Source of the DNA: a virus
Reading direction: 5' to 3' (one strand)
Length of the DNA: 52,734 bases
Virus genome (UHGV): UHGV-0124967
A program made the position numbers and the translations under genes. Of the stretch, positions 2,131-33,216 are shown piece after piece. The notes beneath the pieces were generated by a model that was not told the DNA's origin, made no database searches, and saw only the letters and a program-made list of their open reading frames with translations. Numbering within the stretch: the first letter of the stretch is position 1; the number at the start of each line of letters is the position of its first letter.

Positions 2131-5100
2131 ATGCTGTCGTTGATGTTCTAAATGATCCGGTGCCTCTTGCTACTATCATTGTTGGAGAATACAACGCGGT
2201 ACAATATGCGTATCCTTTAGATGATGATGTTTGAGGACAATATATTTTCCCGATAATATCTGATGCTTCTAAACCAGAAAAAGCGCATTGCACTGTTAAT
2301 GTGCATCCACCATAAGGCACGTAATATGAAATTGTTTTGTTTTTATCTCCGCAACTAAACGTTACGTTATAAATGGATCTATATTCACCAGACATTAATG
2401 AAATAGTCGCCATAAGCATAACTGATTTCGTCAATGCATTATCCGTGCTGTCTTTATATGTGATGGTTGCGCTATAACTTTCGTTATGCCCAAGCACTCG
2501 ATCTGGACCAACCCCCATGTTAGCAACGTCACCGACAAATGACTTTGCCTCTACTGTACCTTTAAACTTCCCGCTTGTGGCCTGAATCTCACCAGTGAAT
2601 TTACCAGATGTTGCGTACACCGTACCGCGTACAGTGACGTTGTTGAACTCCGCATTGCCGTTTTTATTTAGCATCCAGCCATCCGAACCAGCTTTATAGT
2701 TGGTTGACTGAATTTGCTGCGCAATCTTCGCGGTAGTGATTGATGCGTCTCTGATCCACGCATCACGGATGTAGCAAGCACCGTTAGTAACATAGAACGG
2801 GGTCTGATAGGAGCCACCTGCCGCAGTCATAAGCACGAAACTGTCAACGAGGAAAATACACCGCGATTGAACGTTAGTCCCGCTACCAGTAAGGCCGAGC
2901 GACATTCCTGTAGCGTATTTCATACCGTTTTTATCAGTGGCAATCTTAATTGAATATGACGCATCAACGTTACCTTTGAAGTCAGTCAGTGCTTTTGATG
3001 TCGTTTCTATCGCCGTTGTGTTTCCGTTAATAGTTACTTTCAACTGGTCGATTCTGGTTGACAATGCCTCGTCTGCCGTTGCCATAGCCTGTGACCATTC
3101 CGTGATGCTTGAGTTTACATCGTCGAAAGATGCCGAGATCTGGCCAAATTTTTCCGCGCTTGATGTTTCATGCGTAGAAAGTGCAGTTGACACTTCGGAT
3201 ACTTTCGAATTAATCGTACTGGTAAGCGATGAGTTAAGGCTGCTGATTGCGTCAGTGCGTGCATTCTTCTCATCTGCGATCGCTTTATCCATCCTAGTTA
3301 CGTTGCTTGTCACCTTGCTATCGAGCGTGGAAATTGACGCATTAACCCCGCTAATAGCTTCTGCGCGTGTGCTTGATTCGTCAGCGATAGCTTGATCAAG
3401 ACGGCTAACACTGGCATTTGTGTTATTTTCAAGCGTTGTTAAATCAGCTTTAACCTCTGTTATTGCGTCGCTTCTTGCCTGCGTTTCATCTGATATTGCC
3501 TTATCGAGGCGCTTAACACTGGCGTCAGTTTTCTTGTCAAGCGTTGAGATACTTGCGTTCACGTCGCTGATAGCCTGAGTACGCGCACTTGTTTCGTCTG
3601 CAATTGCCCGATCAAGACGGTTTACGCTGGCGTCAGTTTTCTTGTCAAGATTGCTTATTGAGGCATTTACACCGTTAATAGCTTCAGCGCGAGCGCTGGC
3701 CTCGTCAGCTACTGCGCGTTGCACATTAGAGATCTGACCTTTAAGGTTTGTGTCCATCACATTCATTTCTGCCGTGATGGTTTCCAGTGATTCCGCTGTC
3801 GCTTTTTTCTCTTCAGCGATAACGTTGTCAATGCGGTCAATTTCCGCTTTCGTCTCTGTCCTGCCTTTCTTGTACTGAGCGGTAAGAGTTACGCGAGTGT
3901 TAGTCTGTGCAAGCGAGTTATTAATAAGAGCAAGTGAGGCGTTTTGCAGACTTGCTTTTGCTTGCGCCAGTTCGCTGCCAACTTTTTCGCTAGACACCTC
4001 CAGCGAGTCGATTCTCGACTCATGCTGTCCAATATCATCGGAGTTTTCCTTAACTATTTTATAAAGATCTTCCGTTTCTTTTTTGAGCGTATCAGTATCA
4101 GCTTTTATTGATCCTGTTTCTATGGTTAGGTTGTCAGTAGCAGTTTTAAGGTCATTCGTAGCGCTTTCGATAAGATCAGTGCGGTCGCCTAGATCTTTAA
4201 TGTCACCAACCATTTCTTTAAATTGTTCGGAATTCATTACGTCTTTGGTGACGTAATCGGTAATTTCATCAAAGTTTTCTGTTGGCTTACCTGACGCTTC
4301 CACAAAGTCAGACACACCAAAAGCGTTACGCGCGCGCACATAAACGTAATATGTGTGACCTGTATTCATGCCGCCAAACGTCCACTGATGACCACGCCCG
4401 GTATATTGTGCTTTAGTGGTTATTGATGCCGGATCAGTGATCTGCGTTTCACCTGAGTAATAAAACTCGTAACTGGTATCAGTGGTGAGCATTGTTCTGC
4501 TGATCGGGTAAACTGTAGCCTGGAATACACCGGGAACCCAATTAACGCCAACTGGGGCCGCTGGTGCGCCAATAACCAGATCGACAATGCTTTCCGCACC
4601 CTTCATGCCCGTGTCATTTCTGCCACGAATGCCTAATGAGTAGTTGCCAGCATCAATGCCATAAAAATCATAACTGTAATTCGTGGTTTCGTAGCTTTTA
4701 ACTACAGCGCCTTCGGCGTTATACACGCGAATCTCAAAGGTCAGGCGACGCGTTGTCGTCTGTGTTTCCCATGTTGCGCGACATTGAACCGTTTCAGATC
4801 CAACGTTTAACACCTTCAGATTTTCAATGTTCGGCACGCGGAAGTGATTAAGCGTGTCGTTATTGATCTCGAAGATTGCGCCATTATCGACTTCGGCCTG
4901 CTTATGTGGATCATGCTGTGCGGCCTCGATGGTGTATACGCTGTTATTTTCTGTTTCTGCTACACTGGTGATTCGACATAAAACGGGTTTTGCTGCGTTG
5001 GTTGATACAGCAAAAACAGTGCCGTTACGAATCCACGCCGGGGCGGCTGCAAGGGTGATAATGTTCCCGTTAACTCCGATGATCTGGTGTTTTTTAAATT

Positions 5101-9677: not shown

Positions 9678-9874
9678 ACGCCATCAAGCAAAAACAAAAC
9701 TTCCTTCCCTTCTCTGGATCTGCACCCCACATACCCATCACCAACGTCGTGAAGATACCATATATCGCCATTATCAGCTTTTACAGCAAGGTCGTTGATC
9801 TCATAGTCATCAAACAATGTGAAAGCGTCAGTTTTGTCCACTACACAAGTCCCGTACATATTAACCACCATCAT
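9674..9874 (-). CDS. hypothetical protein, 66 aa, translationally coupled to M
   Basis: ATG at 9874..9872 overlaps the M stop (ATGA). Confidence 0.4.
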   Translation of the reverse strand: MMVVNMYGTCVVDKTDAFTLFDDYEINDLAVKADNGDIWYLHDVGDGYVGCRSREGKEVLFLLDGV

Positions 9875-10224
9875 CTAACAACTTGCTCAAACGTTGCGTT
9901 AAGCGTGTATACATGACCGTCTTTCGTCATACTCCAGCTACGGCAAACAAAAAGCCTTTGCACGCCATCCATCGACGGCGACCAGTAAAAAGCCTCGACA
10001 GCGCCGCGCGCCATCAAGAATGCTTCAGCCTGGATCGCCACGTTTCCACCATCACCGCATCCTGCGCTACTGCCTTTAAAGACCAGGGTGTAGCTGTCAA
10101 GCAATGTGTTGATCCCTTTCGCCTGGCGCTGTTCATAACCATCACCAAGTTTGACAACGGACACATTCGGTTCCCTGGTTACGCTGTAGCTTCGTTGCGG
10201 CGTCCATTTGAACACTTCCGGCAT
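9871..10224 (-). CDS. M: minor tail protein M
   Basis: 117 aa between tape measure and L; G-rich RBS. Confidence 0.75.
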   Translation of the reverse strand: MPEVFKWTPQRSYSVTREPNVSVVKLGDGYEQRQAKGINTLLDSYTLVFKGSSAGCGDGGNVAIQAEAFLMARGAVEAFYWSPSMDGVQRLFVCRSWSMTKDGHVYTLNATFEQVVR

Positions 10225-25836: not shown

Positions 25837-26307
25837 CTATTCTTTGCGTAAACACTGAGTTTTGATGTAGTCCTGTAGGCCAGTGATCTGTGCGTCTTTC
25901 TCTTTTAGTTGTTCTCTGAGGGATAGATAAGATTGTCTAGCAGTGGCATCAAGCTCGCAGGTGGCTCCATCAATGCGGCTGGCGGTCGCGGCGGGGTCGG
26001 ACACTCGCACGGGTATTGCGTTGACGCGCAACCGGATAGTACCGTTATCAATGCCAGTGCGCAGATCGGCAATGTCAGATCTGATAGCTTTAATCTCATC
26101 GTGATACCTCTTATCAAGTTTTGACAGTTCGGCGTTTCGCTCCTTCATCTGCTGAATAGTGTTACTTGCCGTTTTCAGTGCGCCTTTCGTTACCGTGACT
26201 TCTTCCTGTAACCTTGCCGCCTCACCATGGTAATAACATGTTACGGCGGTCAGTCCGGCAATAATGCAAACAACAGCGGCGATGATTAACGTCTTCACCT
26301 TGTCCAT
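25837..26307 (-). CDS. Rz: i-spanin Rz
   Basis: 156 aa; N-terminal TM segment then coiled coil; directly downstream of endolysin. Confidence 0.8.
25905..26099 (-). CDS. Rz1: o-spanin Rz1 (lipoprotein embedded in Rz, +1 frame)
   Basis: First ATG 26099; lipobox LSGC; Pro-rich mature part; entirely inside Rz. Confidence 0.7.
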   Translation of the reverse strand: MRLKLSDLTLPICALALITVLSGCASTQYPCECPTPPRPPAALMEPPASLMPLLDNLIYPSENN

Positions 26308-26786
26308 GTTTCACCCCATTCGCAAACGGCATACTCAACATCACGGCGATTAATTAACCCTTGCCACTGCTTACCGCCAGCATATATCCAGCGTTTAAGC
26401 TGTGCGCACGCCTCTGATTTCTTACCGTCATTGAGTAGTTTTAATAAGGTTGATGTTTTGAAGTTGGTAGCGCCTACGTTATAGGCGAATGAATAAAGTG
26501 CTGCGCGGGTAAAATCTGATATTTCGACTTTGATATATGGGTCAATCGCTTTTGCGGTCTTGTGTAGATCTTTATTTAACAAAGCATCGCATTCTGATTG
26601 CGTGTAAGTCTTACCAAGCATGATGTCTTTTCCGACGTGTCCATAACATATCGTGTAAACACCGATGACATCTCTGTATGGCTTATACTCAACGCCTTCA
26701 AGATCTTTTATCATCACCGCCGCAATAGCGATCGCCCCACCAGCCGCCGCCGCAACAATCTTGTTTTTCAGCGATTGGCTAATCAT
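26295..26786 (-). CDS. SAR endolysin (T4-lysozyme-like)
   Basis: 163 aa; N-terminal Gly/Ala-rich weakly hydrophobic SAR segment then catalytic region [22 protein letters not shown]; close to phage 21 R as recalled. Confidence 0.9.
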
Positions 26787-26987
26787 TTACTTATTCCCCA
26801 TTCGCGCGTCGTGTTCCTCTTGCGCCCGCTTGTTCTCCTGTGATTTGAAGTAATAATTAACGGCAAATGTGCCTACGGTTGATAAGATACCAACGAAAAC
26901 AGCGATGTCATTGATGGTTATCGCGCCGAAAAAAGCAGTTACGGCCCCAGTCACATACGCACACGCCTCACGTATTCTGTCGAACAT
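26787..26987 (-). CDS. class II holin (pinholin-like)
   Basis: 66 aa, two hydrophobic segments, charged C-terminus; directly upstream of SAR endolysin. Confidence 0.7.
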   Translation of the reverse strand: MFDRIREACAYVTGAVTAFFGAITINDIAVFVGILSTVGTFAVNYYFKSQENKRAQEEHDARMGNK

Positions 26988-26999
26988 GGATTTTCCTCC

Positions 27000-27028
27000 A
27001 ACAAAGCAAAACCCGGCGCGGGGCCGGG
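27000..27028 (-). terminator. intrinsic terminator in late leader (tR'-like)
   Basis: CCCGGC-GCGGG-GCCGGG hairpin followed on minus strand by T-rich TTTTGCTTTGTT, about 20 nt upstream of holin RBS. Confidence 0.5.
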
Positions 27029-27056
27029 TAATTACAATTTCGCATTGTTAGGAAAT

Positions 27057-27085
27057 ATTTTAATCTGTTTGTTTGCGCTCTACAA
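27057..27085 (-). promoter_or_regulatory. putative late promoter (pR'-like)
   Basis: Minus strand TTGTAG (27085..27080), 17 bp, TAAAAT (27062..27057); leader of about 50 nt ends in the hairpin above. Confidence 0.45.
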
Positions 27086-27093
27086 ATACGGCG

Positions 27094-27321
27094 TTAACGA
27101 TAAGGTCCAAGCAAACGAACAAGCCATTCTTTGTATTTGACGGCAACGTGTTTTGGTGCAAAATATCCTTGCACTTCCTTACCGCCTCGCCACTCCCTTC
27201 TAAATTCGCACTCGTTTTGATACTCCTTTCCGCTTTTACTATCCAGCCAGCAAGCAGGTGAGTAACCTTTTTCACTTCCGAACCGATGCCATATTGATGA
27301 CAGCAAAACCCTTTCTTCCAT
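27094..27321 (-). CDS. hypothetical protein, 75 aa
   Basis: ATG start; preferred over overlapping GTG-start ORF 27060..27275, which would overlap the predicted promoter. Confidence 0.5.
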   Translation of the reverse strand: MEERVLLSSIWHRFGSEKGYSPACWLDSKSGKEYQNECEFRREWRGGKEVQGYFAPKHVAVKYKEWLVRLLGPYR

Positions 27322-27486
27322 ATTACCCCAACAAATACGGCTTTACTGCTTTCTGTATATCAGGCCATTATCAAGCAATGTTTGCATGTGTTCGCGATCC
27401 ATGCCGCTTGATTCCCAATGTGGCCCAGGTATTCGCAACCAATCGTAAACCCAGGGTATTCGCCTTTACACCGGATTTTGTAAAGT

Positions 27487-27810
27487 TTATTTGATGCGCT
27501 CAATTTCCGACCCTCCACTTTCTGCTTCAGTGATTTTGTATTCTGCCGCCAGTTCAGCGCCAAGCAATTCCACTTCCATATTAGCGATACCGTGGAACAT
27601 CAGATAGGCAAAAACTAGGCTTTTAATTCTATCCGGGTCTTCAAGATGGTCTGCATTAAAAGGCGGTTCCGATATGTGGAAGCATTTAACATGCGCATCG
27701 TCTTCAGTGGCTACACGGAAACATGTGCCAGGTTGCCCGGCGAATTCCCCCCATCTTTCTTCGTTCGGTAAAGTACCACGGAAAACTTTAACGCTGATAA
27801 ATTTAGTCAT
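27487..27810 (-). CDS. hypothetical protein, 107 aa
   Basis: Track ORF with ATG start; part of co-directional small-gene array. Confidence 0.5.
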   Translation of the reverse strand: MTKFISVKVFRGTLPNEERWGEFAGQPGTCFRVATEDDAHVKCFHISEPPFNADHLEDPDRIKSLVFAYLMFHGIANMEVELLGAELAAEYKITEAESGGSEIERIK

Positions 27811-27813
27811 TGT

Positions 27814-28095
27814 TTATTCTCCTTCGTAAAGAGTTGCCACCAGTTCGGCATCTGTTAGCGTGTTATAATCTGTATAAAACCCGCAACGCATAAGTGAAGA
27901 AAGGCCAGCCACTTTGCACCACATAGGGGTCGATTCGCTCAAATATTCATTCTCCCTTTTTTCGCTGTATTCCAGTTCATAAAACCGACTATTGTTAACA
28001 CCCTCAATTACACGGCTGTATGTGCCATCAAGCCTACTAACTCCGCGCCATAGTCTGATCACAACCATAATTTCTACTCCGTTTGATGGGGCCAT
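27814..28095 (-). CDS. hypothetical protein, 93 aa (or 84 aa from ATG 28068, which has a GGAG RBS)
   Basis: Track ORF; stop 4 nt before next gene start. Confidence 0.5.
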   Translation of the reverse strand: MAPSNGVEIMVVIRLWRGVSRLDGTYSRVIEGVNNSRFYELEYSEKRENEYLSESTPMWCKVAGLSSLMRCGFYTDYNTLTDAELVATLYEGE

Positions 28096-28536: not shown

Positions 28537-28617
28537 TTTTCTACCCTCCGCATCGTTCTCTCTTCAGCTTCTTTATAACAAAATGGCACTGCCGAAACAA
28601 TGCCATTTCGTAAACCT

Positions 28618-28633
28618 TGTGATACAGATCACA
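28618..28633. promoter_or_regulatory. CRP-consensus-like palindrome TGTGA-N6-TCACA
   Basis: TGTGATACAGATCACA; adjacent to inverted repeat AAATGGCA...TGCCATTT (28582-28608). Confidence 0.35.
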
Positions 28634-28634
28634 T

Positions 28635-28859
28635 TTACGTTTCTTCCGTAAAAGTAACCTTCATCGCCCCATCCGAACTACGGACAACATAACGACCAAT
28701 ACCGCCTAGCGGCCCTGCATACCATAAGTGACCGTAAGTGTCAGTCACGACGATAAACGGAAATTTAGGAGACAATCCCATCGGTTTTTCAGCCGTATAC
28801 TGTGCGCCTTCTTCAAAACAGCCTAATTTCGATTCGTTACACGTTAAAATCATTTTCAT
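28635..28859 (-). CDS. small protein, paralogue family member A (74 aa)
   Basis: Shares F..G.IY...D..G.LW.F-type pattern with the next three genes. Confidence 0.55.
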   Translation of the reverse strand: MKMILTCNESKLGCFEEGAQYTAEKPMGLSPKFPFIVVTDTYGHLWYAGPLGGIGRYVVRSSDGAMKVTFTEET

Positions 28860-29095
28860 ACCCCTACATACGAAAACGCAGCAAAAGCACCACCACCAGC
28901 ACGCGCATAAACAAGTGCCGTGCCATACCCCATCTTATAAAATCGCCATAACTGACCCTGGTCGTCAGTAATGGCATGAATATATTCCTGATCCTTTGCG
29001 TCAACCAATGCCGCGTCAACCTCGTAGATCTTGCCATTCTTAAAAAACGCGCTGCATCGTGAGTATGTGCACTGGTATCTATGTTTCCGATTCAT
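28856..29095 (-). CDS. small protein, paralogue family member B (79 aa)
   Basis: GTGAGGTG RBS; ATGA overlap with A. Confidence 0.55.
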   Translation of the reverse strand: MNRKHRYQCTYSRCSAFFKNGKIYEVDAALVDAKDQEYIHAITDDQGQLWRFYKMGYGTALVYARAGGGAFAAFSYVGV

Positions 29096-29105
29096 AGCAC
29101 CTCAC

Positions 29106-29363
29106 TTATTCCGGTTTACTGCCTTCGCGGGCGCAAAACTCCGCGATCTCACGGAAATCATGCACTATGCGATAAATATACAAACCAGCGGCGTTATTGA
29201 TATGGCTAACATAAGCGAAATAAACTTTATCATCATCGCCAGTTATCGCCATTGCACCATCACCGCCCGGTGCGCCGTGGAGTTGAACGCCGCAATAGAT
29301 CTTCCCTTCTTCAAAAATATTGCGGTCGCGCGTCTGTAATACCTCAAAATATAAATGTTTCAT
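29106..29363 (-). CDS. small protein, paralogue family member C (85 aa)
   Basis: ATG 29363 with AAAGGGG RBS (track ORF extends to 29399). Confidence 0.55.
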   Translation of the reverse strand: MKHLYFEVLQTRDRNIFEEGKIYCGVQLHGAPGGDGAMAITGDDDKVYFAYVSHINNAAGLYIYRIVHDFREIAEFCAREGSKPE

Positions 29364-29373
29364 TGTTGCCCCT

Positions 29374-29586
29374 TTAATAACGTTCAAAGCTGGCAGCAAA
29401 ACCTACACCGGATATTTCACCGCCTTCATAGCTCGGCCTGAATACCCATATTTCGTCATGATTATCAATCAAGGCAAGGCAATTACTCATTGTGTGTGCT
29501 TCATTGCCATAAACGATGTGAACGTCATAAATACTCCCAATCGTGAAAACACTGTCATTGCTTGAGTATGAGCATTTAACTTGCAT
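29374..29586 (-). CDS. small protein, paralogue family member D (70 aa)
   Basis: Start overlaps upstream stop by 1 nt. Confidence 0.55.
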   Translation of the reverse strand: MQVKCSYSSNDSVFTIGSIYDVHIVYGNEAHTMSNCLALIDNHDEIWVFRPSYEGGEISGVGFAASFERY

Positions 29587-29831
29587 CAGAAAACCCCTTT
29601 ATAATCGACCGTGTATTTTGCTATCAGATTCCAGTCGCAGTAATTAAGCATGTTGCGAGGCTGCCAGCCTTTCATCCCGACCGCCCGCCGCGCAGCGTGA
29701 CGGCGATAATCATCGTTATAGTCAGCTATGCACCACGGCTGGAGAACAAACATATAATTTGCTTCATTAACCAGGATAGCCACCAGCTTTCCTGTTGCCT
29801 TGTCTTTTGCCCTGAAATAATTCACTTTCAT
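29586..29831 (-). CDS. hypothetical protein, 81 aa
   Basis: Track ORF, coupled to neighbours. Confidence 0.5.
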   Translation of the reverse strand: MKVNYFRAKDKATGKLVAILVNEANYMFVLQPWCIADYNDDYRRHAARRAVGMKGWQPRNMLNYCDWNLIAKYTVDYKGVF

Positions 29832-30043
29832 TTTAACACCTCGTCGATCAACATTTCTTCTTCCAGGTTAGCCGGACGTTTACGAAATATCCCGGCAAAA
29901 ACCAGATCTTCGAGTAGGTCTTTACGCTTAAATAACCACTCTTTCATTATCACCCCGTCGTTGCTGCGATATACGACGCCGCTTTTCAGAAAATAAAAAG
30001 TGCGGCTATTGGTCTGTAGGTAGAGATCTTCGTAAACGTCCAT
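29828..30043 (-). CDS. hypothetical protein, 71 aa
   Basis: Track ORF, 4-nt overlap with downstream gene. Confidence 0.5.
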   Translation of the reverse strand: MDVYEDLYLQTNSRTFYFLKSGVVYRSNDGVIMKEWLFKRKDLLEDLVFAGIFRKRPANLEEEMLIDEVLK

Positions 30044-30047
30044 ACCG

Positions 30048-30275
30048 TTAATCCTCTACAATCTCAAGCCCGCGCCCCTTGTCCCCGACGAAATCGCCCA
30101 AGCTGAACGTATACGACCACGCCGGATTGATGTAATGGTCATCAGCACCAGCGGCAATGAGATCAGCACCATTAATCATGCAAGTAATATCATCGCTATG
30201 AACGACATTAACGACCTTACCAACAACCTGTTTCAATGACTGGTATCCGTGATCGTGCAAGAATTTAACTTTCAT
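30048..30275 (-). CDS. hypothetical protein, 75 aa (distant resemblance to the A-D family)
   Basis: Track ORF with ATG. Confidence 0.5.
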   Translation of the reverse strand: MKVKFLHDHGYQSLKQVVGKVVNVVHSDDITCMINGADLIAAGADDHYINPAWSYTFSLGDFVGDKGRGLEIVED

Positions 30276-30505
30276 TCGTCTGCCTCCCAGTGGTCTATGC
30301 TGATTAAAAAGTCCCGGATAGCGTGTCGTTCGTCGCGCGTTGGCTTGCGCTTACGGTAAATCTTAAAGTCAAACCATTCTTTTTCTTGTTCGAAATCCAG
30401 GTTGTAAGCAAGCACCTCAATATATCCACATTCGTGATACTGGTACGCCACGCCAGCACGAACAAAAAAGCGGGTTTTATCCCGCTTGTGTTCATAGATA
30501 CGCAT
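30272..30505 (-). CDS. hypothetical protein, 77 aa
   Basis: Track ORF; ATGA overlap. Confidence 0.5.
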   Translation of the reverse strand: MRIYEHKRDKTRFFVRAGVAYQYHECGYIEVLAYNLDFEQEKEWFDFKIYRKRKPTRDERHAIRDFLISIDHWEADE

Positions 30506-31746: not shown

Positions 31747-32058
31747 TTAAAATCTGTATTGCCAGTAAATATCACACTTTATTGCGAATACCTTCACCGG
31801 ATCAGGGCCGAATAGTGGATGTTGAATCAACTTGATTTCGTACCCCATGTAAGGCAATACGATAATCCGGTCTTTCTCATCATCCGATGGATAACCCCAT
31901 TTAATGATTAATCTTGTGTACTCCCGCCCCTCCAGGCGTTTACGCCAGTATTCATTGTAAAGCCGGTATTCTTCCACCTTCTTTCCCGCCCGGATGGCGT
32001 GGAAGTATTCACCTTTTAAATTCAAATGTAAGTGTTTATTTGCCATCGCTATGATCAT
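31747..32058 (-). CDS. putative ASCH-domain protein (start 32058 or 32046)
   Basis: HAIRAGKKVEEYRL fits the ASCH GxKxxExR motif. Confidence 0.5.
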   Translation of the reverse strand: MIIAMANKHLHLNLKGEYFHAIRAGKKVEEYRLYNEYWRKRLEGREYTRLIIKWGYPSDDEKDRIIVLPYMGYEIKLIQHPLFGPDPVKVFAIKCDIYWQYRF

Positions 32059-32305: not shown

Positions 32306-32501
32306 CCTTCACCTCGCGACGATAGATTTCTACTGGCTTAACCGGAATAGCGTTAAAATCACCTTCATCCAGTGCGGCAATAAACGTTAGCGCCAACCGT
32401 GCTTCAACACCGCTTAAATACTTGCACCATGCCTCACCGTTATAATCTTTAAAAAGAATAATCACTTTTTCATGTTTATCTCTTGTTGTTTCATTATTCA
32501 C
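32295..32501 (-). CDS. hypothetical protein, 68 aa, non-ATG (GTG) start
   Basis: No in-frame ATG; begins at GTG overlapping the Q stop. Confidence 0.4.
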   Translation of the reverse strand: MNNETTRDKHEKVIILFKDYNGEAWCKYLSGVEARLALTFIAALDEGDFNAIPVKPVEIYRREVKDEA

Positions 32502-33216
32502 CCCGTGTCACTCGTTTAATTTCGTTATCAGCCCGCGCCTCTTCTTTGAACAATTCAGTAATGGCGTCTTCATAGAAAGCACGGTATTTCTTCCACCACG
32601 TTGATCGGCTTACCGGAAATACAAGCTGATTAACCGCACGCCGGACAAGATCTACAGGGAAACGCGAGTACCCGCGCCCGCCGCAATGCTGGCACGTTTT
32701 GAACACTGGCATTTCCGCTGCTTCACTGGCTGCTTTATCCGGTATCTCGCCGCGCCCTTTGCATCGTTTACAATGATTGCGAACTTTTCCATGCCCCTTG
32801 CATTTTTTGCAAAGGTGTTTTTCTCCGTAGTCGTCAAACGTAAATTTATATCCGCCGCAATCCATACAAGTTTTTTCTGTCGCGGCACTCTGGCAGTAAT
32901 CCCGAAACGCGAAAACGGCAACAAGAATAATAAGATCATTGCGTTTGTCCTCGTCCAACTCCATGACGTATTCGTAATCTTTTGCCATAGCTCTTAAACG
33001 CTCTGTAAGCAAAACTACGGCCCTGTGTTTTTCGGCTTGCGATAATTCCATCTTCCCTAAAAAAGCGCTATAACCAAGCTCTACGCGCGATTGCGCCATA
33101 CCTGCTGCGGTTAGTGCATCAGTAGTATTAAGCGAGTCTGGGGACGTGCCCCGGCTTTCATCTGACAAACGCGGTGATTTTGGGAAGTGGAATTTAAGAA
33201 TAGATTCCAAATTCAT
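32494..33216 (-). CDS. Q: late-gene antitermination protein Q (zinc-finger type)
   Basis: 240 aa; four CxxCxGxG repeats; follows RusA and a small gene as in nin regions. Confidence 0.65.
   Translation of the reverse strand: MNLESILKFHFPKSPRLSDESRGTSPDSLNTTDALTAAGMAQSRVELGYSAFLGKMELSQAEKHRAVVLLTERLRAMAKDYEYVMELDEDKRNDLIILVAVFAFRDYCQSAATEKTCMDCGGYKFTFDDYGEKHLCKKCKGHGKVRNHCKRCKGRGEIPDKAASEAAEMPVFKTCQHCGGRGYSRFPVDLVRRAVNQLVFPVSRSTWWKKYRAFYEDAITELFKEEARADNEIKRVTRGE

Follow-up and report, generated by a model that had tools for sequence, protein, structure and literature searches.

Four tandem paralogues in a temperate coliphage genome, their predicted Gp54-like barrel fold, and a possible role in binding host proteins

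Four consecutive small genes, A to D, occupy positions 28635 to 29586 on the minus strand of the viral genome UHGV-0124967, of which a stretch of 52,734 nucleotides (nt), called the window below, was analyzed. They raise the question of whether they are copies of one gene and, if so, what use a phage might have for several diverged versions of it. A reading made from the letters of the window alone (here, the sequence-only reading) had described them as tandem paralogues with a common motif pattern. Our answer has parts of unequal strength. The structural and evolutionary part is well supported: A to D form a dispensable, reshuffled array of related proteins, predicted to be barrels of the type seen in Gp54 of phage Bas11. 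The functional part, according to which they would be protein-binding modules aimed at different host proteins, is a possibility that is clearly more apt to fail than to hold, and the reading taken as a whole falls slightly short of even chances.

In transcription order, the array consists of gene D (29374..29586; 70 amino acids [aa] in the list of open reading frames [ORFs]), gene C (29106..29363; 85 aa), which is the most divergent paralogue, gene B (28856..29095; 79 aa), which is the most central one by sequence comparison, and gene A (28635..28859; 74 aa from the first ATG). Genes D and C, as well as C and B, are separated by 10 nt, while B and A overlap by 4 nt, and the 5' end of gene D overlaps the stop codon of the preceding gene by 1 nt. 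Each of the four has its own Shine-Dalgarno-like box (AGGGG or GAGGTG), as read from the sequence. For gene A, the second ATG (28853; MILTC..., giving 72 aa) is the most likely start because the AGGGG box is properly spaced only for this codon and because the RefSeq annotation of relatives agrees and an M-x-h-x-C start is typical of the other members.

In pairwise comparisons (Smith-Waterman z scores against shuffles, and BLASTP), the similarity of B and D was clear (z, 7.4; E, 9e-6), A-B (z, 4.0; E, 0.003) and B-C (z, 3.2; E, 0.014) were borderline, and A-C, A-D, and C-D scored at shuffle noise; the pairwise identities among A to D were 19% to 28%. Three pairs that do no better than shuffles, and identities from as low as 19%, are what would be expected if the likeness were due to chance or composition among unrelated small ORFs. 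However, this explanation is hardly credible in light of the profile comparisons. The Q-to-lysis regions of 12 related phages and prophages were taken and all of their ORFs were clustered, and additional subfamilies were found in the array slot (f33, f37, f41, and f32) and, in a fifth case (f39), elsewhere, between the RusA and Q genes. Through such intermediate subfamilies, A, B, and D are joined at BLASTP E values of 1e-4 to 4e-6 (A-f37, 4.4e-6; B-f41, 2e-5; D-f37, 2e-5; B-f37, 6e-5). When one subfamily at a time was left out and a hidden Markov model (HMM) built from the remaining ones was searched against 368 real ORFs and 3,680 shuffled decoys, all four paralogues were recovered (A, E of 3.8e-5; B, 3.8e-11; C, 1.3e-4; D, 3.5e-8), the best decoy having an E value of at least 0.06 (11 bits) and the unrelated neighboring genes all having E values of 2.4 or weaker. 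The corresponding leave-one-out hhalign P values were 5.6e-5 for A (over its full length), 1.6e-11 for B, 6.1e-6 for C, and 7.9e-11 for D, and the other gene families of the region gave probabilities of at most 4%, except for f34, which is not in the window and was borderline (HMM E, 0.025; hhalign, 27%, P of 6.7e-4). All alignments contain the same colinear motif, namely, a beta-strand start (usually with a Cys), F-x-x-G-x-I-Y, h-h-x-D-D-x-G-x-x-W-x-F, and A-x-F near the C terminus, with the F and Y invariant and the G nearly so in the family alignment. In addition, the independent structural models of C and D described below have the same unique structural match. By these comparisons, A to D are true, anciently diverged copies of one gene.

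The central claim of the sequence-only reading, that four paralogues with a common pattern stand in tandem at these positions, was thereby confirmed. Against shuffled controls, it holds outright for B-D and, at the level of profiles, over all decoys, and the pairs A-C, A-D, and C-D lend it nothing. When the family HMM was run over all six frames of the whole window, exactly four members were found. The gene at 30048 to 30275, which had been proposed as a fifth, loosely similar copy, is to be dropped: it had no HMM match at an E value of 10 or better and an hhalign probability of 0.8%, and it belongs to PHROG 5009 rather than to phrog_31142, the group matched by several family members. Another gene of the region, U3 (27814-28095), is locally similar to B (BLASTP E, 6e-4), and the profiles give this similarity no backing; U3 is tandemly duplicated in two prophages (L003, 2144-2682; L004, 2147-2685).

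By sequence, the window represents a temperate coliphage of the mEpimmI group, related to mEp021; its nucleotide identity to mEp044, mEp010, mEp021, and MagusPhagus is 83% to 88%, and it is 99% identical to prophages in a few Escherichia coli chromosomes. The mEpimmI phages are Nus-dependent, non-lambdoid temperate siphophages (PMC11893012). The array content of such relatives was determined from a six-frame HMM scan read together with the gene maps, and nine subfamilies were found over 13 phages and prophages, with 0 to 5 copies in the array slot. In transcription order, the window has D C B A; MagusPhagus (L001) and L005 have f32 D C B A, as does L004 with a frameshifted D; L003 has f37 D C B A; L006 has f41 f37 C B A; L009 has f41 f37 B A, with f39 elsewhere; mEp044 (L002) has f33 B A, also with f39 elsewhere; mEp010 (L007) and L010 have f33 B A; L011 has f33 D A; and L012 has f32 D A. 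No family member was found across the whole 54.7-kb genome of mEp021 (best match E, 0.08). Since mEp021 forms plaques, the family is dispensable for such a phage. Both checks that the sequence-only reading had proposed here, for the family in other prophages and for variation in copy number, gave positive results.

Several proteins of the family are chimeric. P0039 combines the N terminus of allele A2 with the C terminus of allele A, P0073 is f32 fused in register to A at a common TCNE, and P0067 is f33 fused to A2; in P0078, the N terminus of D is fused to the unrelated gene U3, and in P0007, P0012, and P0038, B or f32 is fused to the tail of U4. Judged from their sequences, these chimeras point to recombination and deletion inside and around the array, and some of them may be assembly artifacts. 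The GenBank record of mEp010 contains a 133-aa ORF (3609-4010) that runs in an alternative frame across B into A (compare window positions 28864-29037), and the intact B of mEp010, 92% identical to that of the window, is unannotated there; the 133-aa ORF probably reflects an error in gene calling.

Purifying selection acts on each paralogue, as the ratios of nonsynonymous to synonymous substitution rates (dN/dS) among orthologues were 0.17 for A, 0.13 for B, 0.15 for C, and 0.19 for D, compared with 0.06 to 0.36 for neighboring genes and 0.13 for Q. Therefore, A to D are real coding genes, and the sequence can be explained without the opposite-strand ORF at 29031 to 29339. Alleles differ mainly within short cassettes. 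Among gene D alleles, the proportion of nonsynonymous differences (pN) was 0.015 in residues 1 to 27 versus 0.42 in residues 28 to 53, and among gene A alleles it was 0.05 in residues 28 to 44 versus 0.49 in residues 45 to 70; two allelic C-terminal halves of A are known, in addition to their hybrid, P0039. In gene C alleles, residues 1 to 52 are conserved (pN, 0.024), after which ~10 residues are replaced. In the variable cassettes of D and A, the ratio of pN to its synonymous counterpart (pS) was ~0.6, below 1, with pS near saturation, and we read the variation as an exchange of old alleles and not as demonstrable positive selection. The proposal that tandem diversification reflects selection for variants thus survives in part: localized allelic cassettes in A, C, and D and the chimeras speak for diversification, but the gene-wide dN/dS values (0.13 to 0.19) and the pN/pS ratios below 1 do not speak for selection in its favor.

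Models of two of the four proteins, D and C, were built with AlphaFold2 from a 37-sequence family alignment, and both showed the same six-stranded barrel. The two models are all-beta, with a 10-residue beta1-beta2 loop; that of D (predicted local distance difference test score [pLDDT], 82.7; predicted template modeling score [pTM], 0.70) has strands at residues 2-8, 19-25, 36-40, 46-49, 57-60, and 63-69, and that of C (pLDDT, 82.1; pTM, 0.72) has strands at residues 3-11, 22-28, 37-41, 47-55, 62-68, and 71-78. Gene D encodes the minimal six-stranded form, whereas in the gene C product the N-terminal Cys is missing, strands beta4-beta6 are longer, and a C-terminal tail is present. The unique structural match of both models was Gp54 of Bas11 (PDB 9axb). 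Gp54 is described as a six-stranded barrel of a rare kind, in which the beta1-beta2 loop is prominent, and is non-essential; it directly binds the sensor domain of CapRelSJ46, and its authors suggest a possible inhibition of another defense system, while even close Gp54 homologues do not activate CapRelSJ46 (PMC11578894). A colinear alignment of low confidence places the F-x-x-G of the family on F21-K-K-G24 of Gp54 and its D-x-G-x-x-W on S-G-L-x-W; G24 is a site of escape mutation, and I25, directly after it, is a CapRel-interface residue. A Foldseek search of the predicted viral structures in BFVD returned only uncharacterized small proteins of enterobacterial siphophages, at marginal E values (2e-3 and weaker).

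The idea that the family represents a single beta-propeller blade was also considered, as the family profile matched designed "Cake" propellers (E, 1e-11) and WD40 and BNR proteins. The "Cake" match amounts to 5.8 bits per repeat (independent E, 140), the total being a sum over identical repeats. This idea was rejected because repeats of a beta-hairpin motif (h-h-D-D-x-G-x-h-W-h-F) inflate the score and because both models are closed barrels.

No matching model for the family was found in Pfam, NCBIfam, or PADLOC. Weak Pfam matches (DUF6436, DUF6156, DUF6363, Caskin1-CID, and DUF7244) were far below the cutoffs and differed from member to member, and they were discarded. In the PHROG database, phrog_31142 was matched by B (6e-7) and D (8e-5) and by 9 of 15 family representatives (best, 3.5e-45), and phrog_4927 was matched by four representatives, neither group having a functional annotation; A and C alone match neither group and are joined to them only via the family profile. 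A word-seeded protein search returned only proteins of E. coli or E. coli phages wherever the source names an organism, and, with B alone as the query, only proteins whose aligned part was at least 74% identical to B. When 1.84 billion representative proteins were searched exhaustively with the HMM, only 27 matches had E values of 1e-3 or better. The genuine ones were the known subfamilies plus P0085 (67 aa, D-like) and P0086 (212 aa; the domain occurs twice in tandem, and the C terminus carries a membrane anchor), and the remainder were WD40 and BNR propeller proteins with 3 to 15 weak matched stretches each. Given the small yield of these searches, the family is a narrow one in terms of sequence.

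The gene for P0086 lies on the 50-kb contig L013 (6001-6639), the terminase of which is identical to those found in T1-like phages, for example, Shfl1 and vB_EcoS_SH2. The same contig has a further member at 9740-9943 (family HMM E, 7.5e-7; phrog_4927, 2.9e-31), a possible one at 3862-4053 (E, 0.007), and a true Gp54-family gene at 2365-2559, all four lying in a stretch of ~8 kb made up of small early genes. Directly upstream of the P0086 gene is an ASCH/DUF3850 gene, and an ASCH-like gene, called "RNA-binding protein" in annotations of relatives, is found in the window at 31747-32058.

The array sits in a ~5.5-kb run of ~25 small genes, all on the same strand. The run is bounded upstream by the gene for a Q-type antitermination protein (32494..33216, minus strand; PF03589 Antiterm, E of 2.6e-30, and annotated as an antitermination protein in relatives) and is followed downstream by the holin and lysozyme genes (26295-26987). 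On the coding strand, a promoter scan found no sigma-70-like site upstream of the array. Directly downstream of gene A, at the end of the array, a fold of positions 28537-28640 of the minus strand gave a terminator-like hairpin (28578..28611; 15-bp stem, -28.3 kcal/mol, z of -3.3), and the mEp044 and mEp010 records list a Rho-independent terminator at the homologous site. The beginning of the gene at 30272-30505 contains another terminator-like hairpin (30468-30487, minus strand; GC-rich stem of 7 bp, then TTTTTGTT), which may be due to chance or be an internal attenuator.

In an alignment of seven mEpimmI phages and prophages, ~105 nt before the holin start (26988..27095, minus strand) were almost invariant despite differing flanking genes. 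On the basis of consensus and conservation, this block can be read as a late promoter (TTGTAG and TAAAAT, 17 nt apart), a ~40-nt leader, a strong intrinsic terminator (27029-27011, from the terminator scan), a Shine-Dalgarno sequence, and the holin ATG; TERM_5 of mEp021 is at the same place as this terminator. Such a layout, terminator included, is that expected of Q-dependent late promoters and resembles lambda PR'/tR', but the block is located ~5.5 kb downstream of Q instead of adjoining it. If the late-promoter reading is right, the array is upstream of the late promoter and outside the late operon. It would then most likely be the tail of a rightward delayed-early transcript that also makes Q, which would suit a role in early host takeover and would make expression from a repressed prophage unlikely.

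How could such an array work? A to D would probably be cotranscribed and individually translated during lytic development. The conserved core (beta1, the F-x-x-G-x-h-Y at beta2, the D-D-x-G turn, the W/Y in beta4, and the A-x-F in beta6) would hold the barrel, and the loops and C-terminal strands, variable among paralogues and alleles, would form the binding surfaces. Each copy could be directed at a different host protein, most plausibly a component of anti-phage defense or another host factor, and phages would carry different sets according to the hosts that they have met, the array being reshuffled by gain, loss, allele replacement, and recombination in a birth-and-death pattern. The calculated isoelectric points are 4.6 to 5.5 for A, C, and D and 9.0 for B, most family members having values of 4.2 to 5.7 (charge, -6 for D and -4 for C), and no signal peptide or membrane segment was found in the sequences of A to D, which are predicted to be cytoplasmic. 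For acidic or neutral proteins without such segments, protein binding fits better than nucleic-acid binding. The predicted match to the Gp54 fold makes the idea of host targets more plausible without proving it.

Several points weigh against this proposal. The fold models are predictions from a shallow alignment of 37 sequences, and a link to Gp54 at the sequence level was absent from hhalign comparisons (0.2% to 0.4% in local, global, and greedy modes, also with the T1-like members in the profile), from searches with PF25180 (no match at an E value of 1 or better for A to D or the 15 representatives), and from a scan of the window with the Gp54 HMM. The structural match could therefore be convergence rather than distant homology. 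Small SH3-like barrels serve in nucleic-acid binding and virion assembly as well, and Gp54 itself is known only as something that a bacterial immune sensor recognizes. Positive selection left no signature either gene-wide or in the D and A cassettes, and the promoter and terminator assignments are at the consensus level only.

In a more specific version of the proposal, the array would be a portable set of recombining binders with the Gp54 fold, each of which clamps the sensor or regulatory domain of a different immune protein and either blocks or triggers it; candidate targets would be the zinc-finger-like antitoxin domains of CapRel-type fused toxin-antitoxins. We consider this version unlikely. 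If it were true, the copies carried would help to decide which E. coli strains a temperate phage grows in, and Gp54 would be one sampled member of a larger fold superfamily of immune-interface proteins that is invisible at the sequence level.

Other functions were weighed against the binding of host proteins. That A to D are small regulators that bind nucleic acids through SH3-, Sm-, Tudor-, or KOW-like barrels and tune phage transcription or translation is improbable, given that most members are acidic, that the alignment has no conserved basic patch, that SH3 and Tudor match scores were far below that of Gp54, and that dispensability and variable copy number would be unusual for core regulators. 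A role in the virion or its assembly (decoration, scaffolding, or a chaperone-like function) draws on two observations: the nearby gene X2 (29828-30043) is homologous to mEp021_41, a protein detected in virions by mass spectrometry (PMC11893012), and the second domain of P0086 weakly matches phrog_14592, "virion structural protein" (1.7e-6). However, A to D themselves give no match to phrog_14592, mEp021 builds virions although its genome encodes no family member, between 0 and 5 copies occur in phages whose structural modules are nearly identical, and the position of the array is upstream of the putative late promoter, away from the structural genes, so that such a role has very little chance of being the right one.

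Equally poor, in our estimate, are the prospects of A to D being lysogenic-conversion or superinfection-exclusion genes that are expressed from the prophage and benefit the host. The phage is temperate, the region is a flexible accessory one, and P0086, a relative from a T1-like phage, carries a membrane anchor at its C terminus, as do some exclusion proteins, but A to D have no membrane segment, and relatives occur in strictly virulent T1-like phages. There is also no promoter-like site before the array on the coding strand, its head-to-tail packing in a same-strand run from Q would lead one to expect silence under repression, and PADLOC gave no match. Binding of host proteins during lytic growth, tentative as it is, remains the function that we prefer.

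Additional features of the small-gene run were noted. The X2 homologue mEp021_41 is annotated as "virion structural protein" on the basis of mass spectrometry and has been described as a "mislocated" structural gene among early accessory genes, distantly resembling an RNA-binding translational repressor (PMC11893012). X2 itself is on the minus strand and scored above shuffles against the gene at 30272-30505 (z, 4.7) and the gene at 27487-27810 (z, 4.8); judging from such pairs, the run may hold more paralogue families. The stretch at 27030-27486, which separates the gene at 27487-27810 from the putative late promoter, has only weak ORFs (27094-27321 and 27360-27563). It is common to 2 of the 12 relatives, most others having three to five small genes there, so that high variability extends to the left end of the accessory run as well.

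Small accessory genes that are paralogous to one another often stand in runs in phages, so the existence of the array is unsurprising. What is new is the definition of a family that has no Pfam entry and the evidence that its copy number varies from 0 to 5 and that chimeras occur, as well as the predicted structural link, without sequence similarity, to the rare Gp54 fold in both a temperate group and T1-like phages. Of this rare six-stranded barrel fold, only Gp54 of Bas11 has been studied so far, and the link suggests that the fold is a widespread, fast-diversifying phage tool and not a one-off. Cultured phages of E. coli K-12 with 0 (mEp021), 3 (mEp010 and mEp044), and 5 (MagusPhagus) copies provide a natural experiment. 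The main use of the array would be as a tractable system for finding out what Gp54-fold proteins do and whether immune systems sense them; in addition, the uncurated family could be defined in Pfam, and it shows how the flexible region of mEpimmI phages evolves.

Among known systems, the lambda nin region, the Q-S moron sites, and anti-defense islands are likewise runs of small, non-essential genes that are mosaic and variable, and the location by Q and the lysis genes is similar, as generally known for lambdoid phages (see also PMC11893012). The array differs from these in consisting of one fold family, tandemly duplicated and without promoters of its own, and an anti-defense role for it is hypothetical. 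SH3-like small beta-barrels (SH3, Tudor, FeoA, and PliC-like) have five strands, whereas the predicted models of the array family have six; their structural scores were far below that of the Gp54 match, and they show no sequence signal to the family. The closest counterpart is Gp54, with which the array proteins share, in comparisons of the predicted models with the crystal structure 9axb, a six-stranded beta-barrel with a prominent beta1-beta2 loop; they too are small (70 to 85 aa), non-essential accessory proteins of coliphages. However, the two belong to different PHROGs (31142 and 4927 for those members of the array family that have a match; 7421 for Gp54, with Pfam entry PF25180, "Phage antiviral trigger protein Gp54"), and the beta2-beta3 loop is longer in the array family. 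The single T1-like contig examined has one Gp54-family gene, whereas the array family forms tandem diverged copies, and while Bas11 is a virulent member of the Drexlerviridae, the array is carried by a temperate phage of the mEpimmI group.

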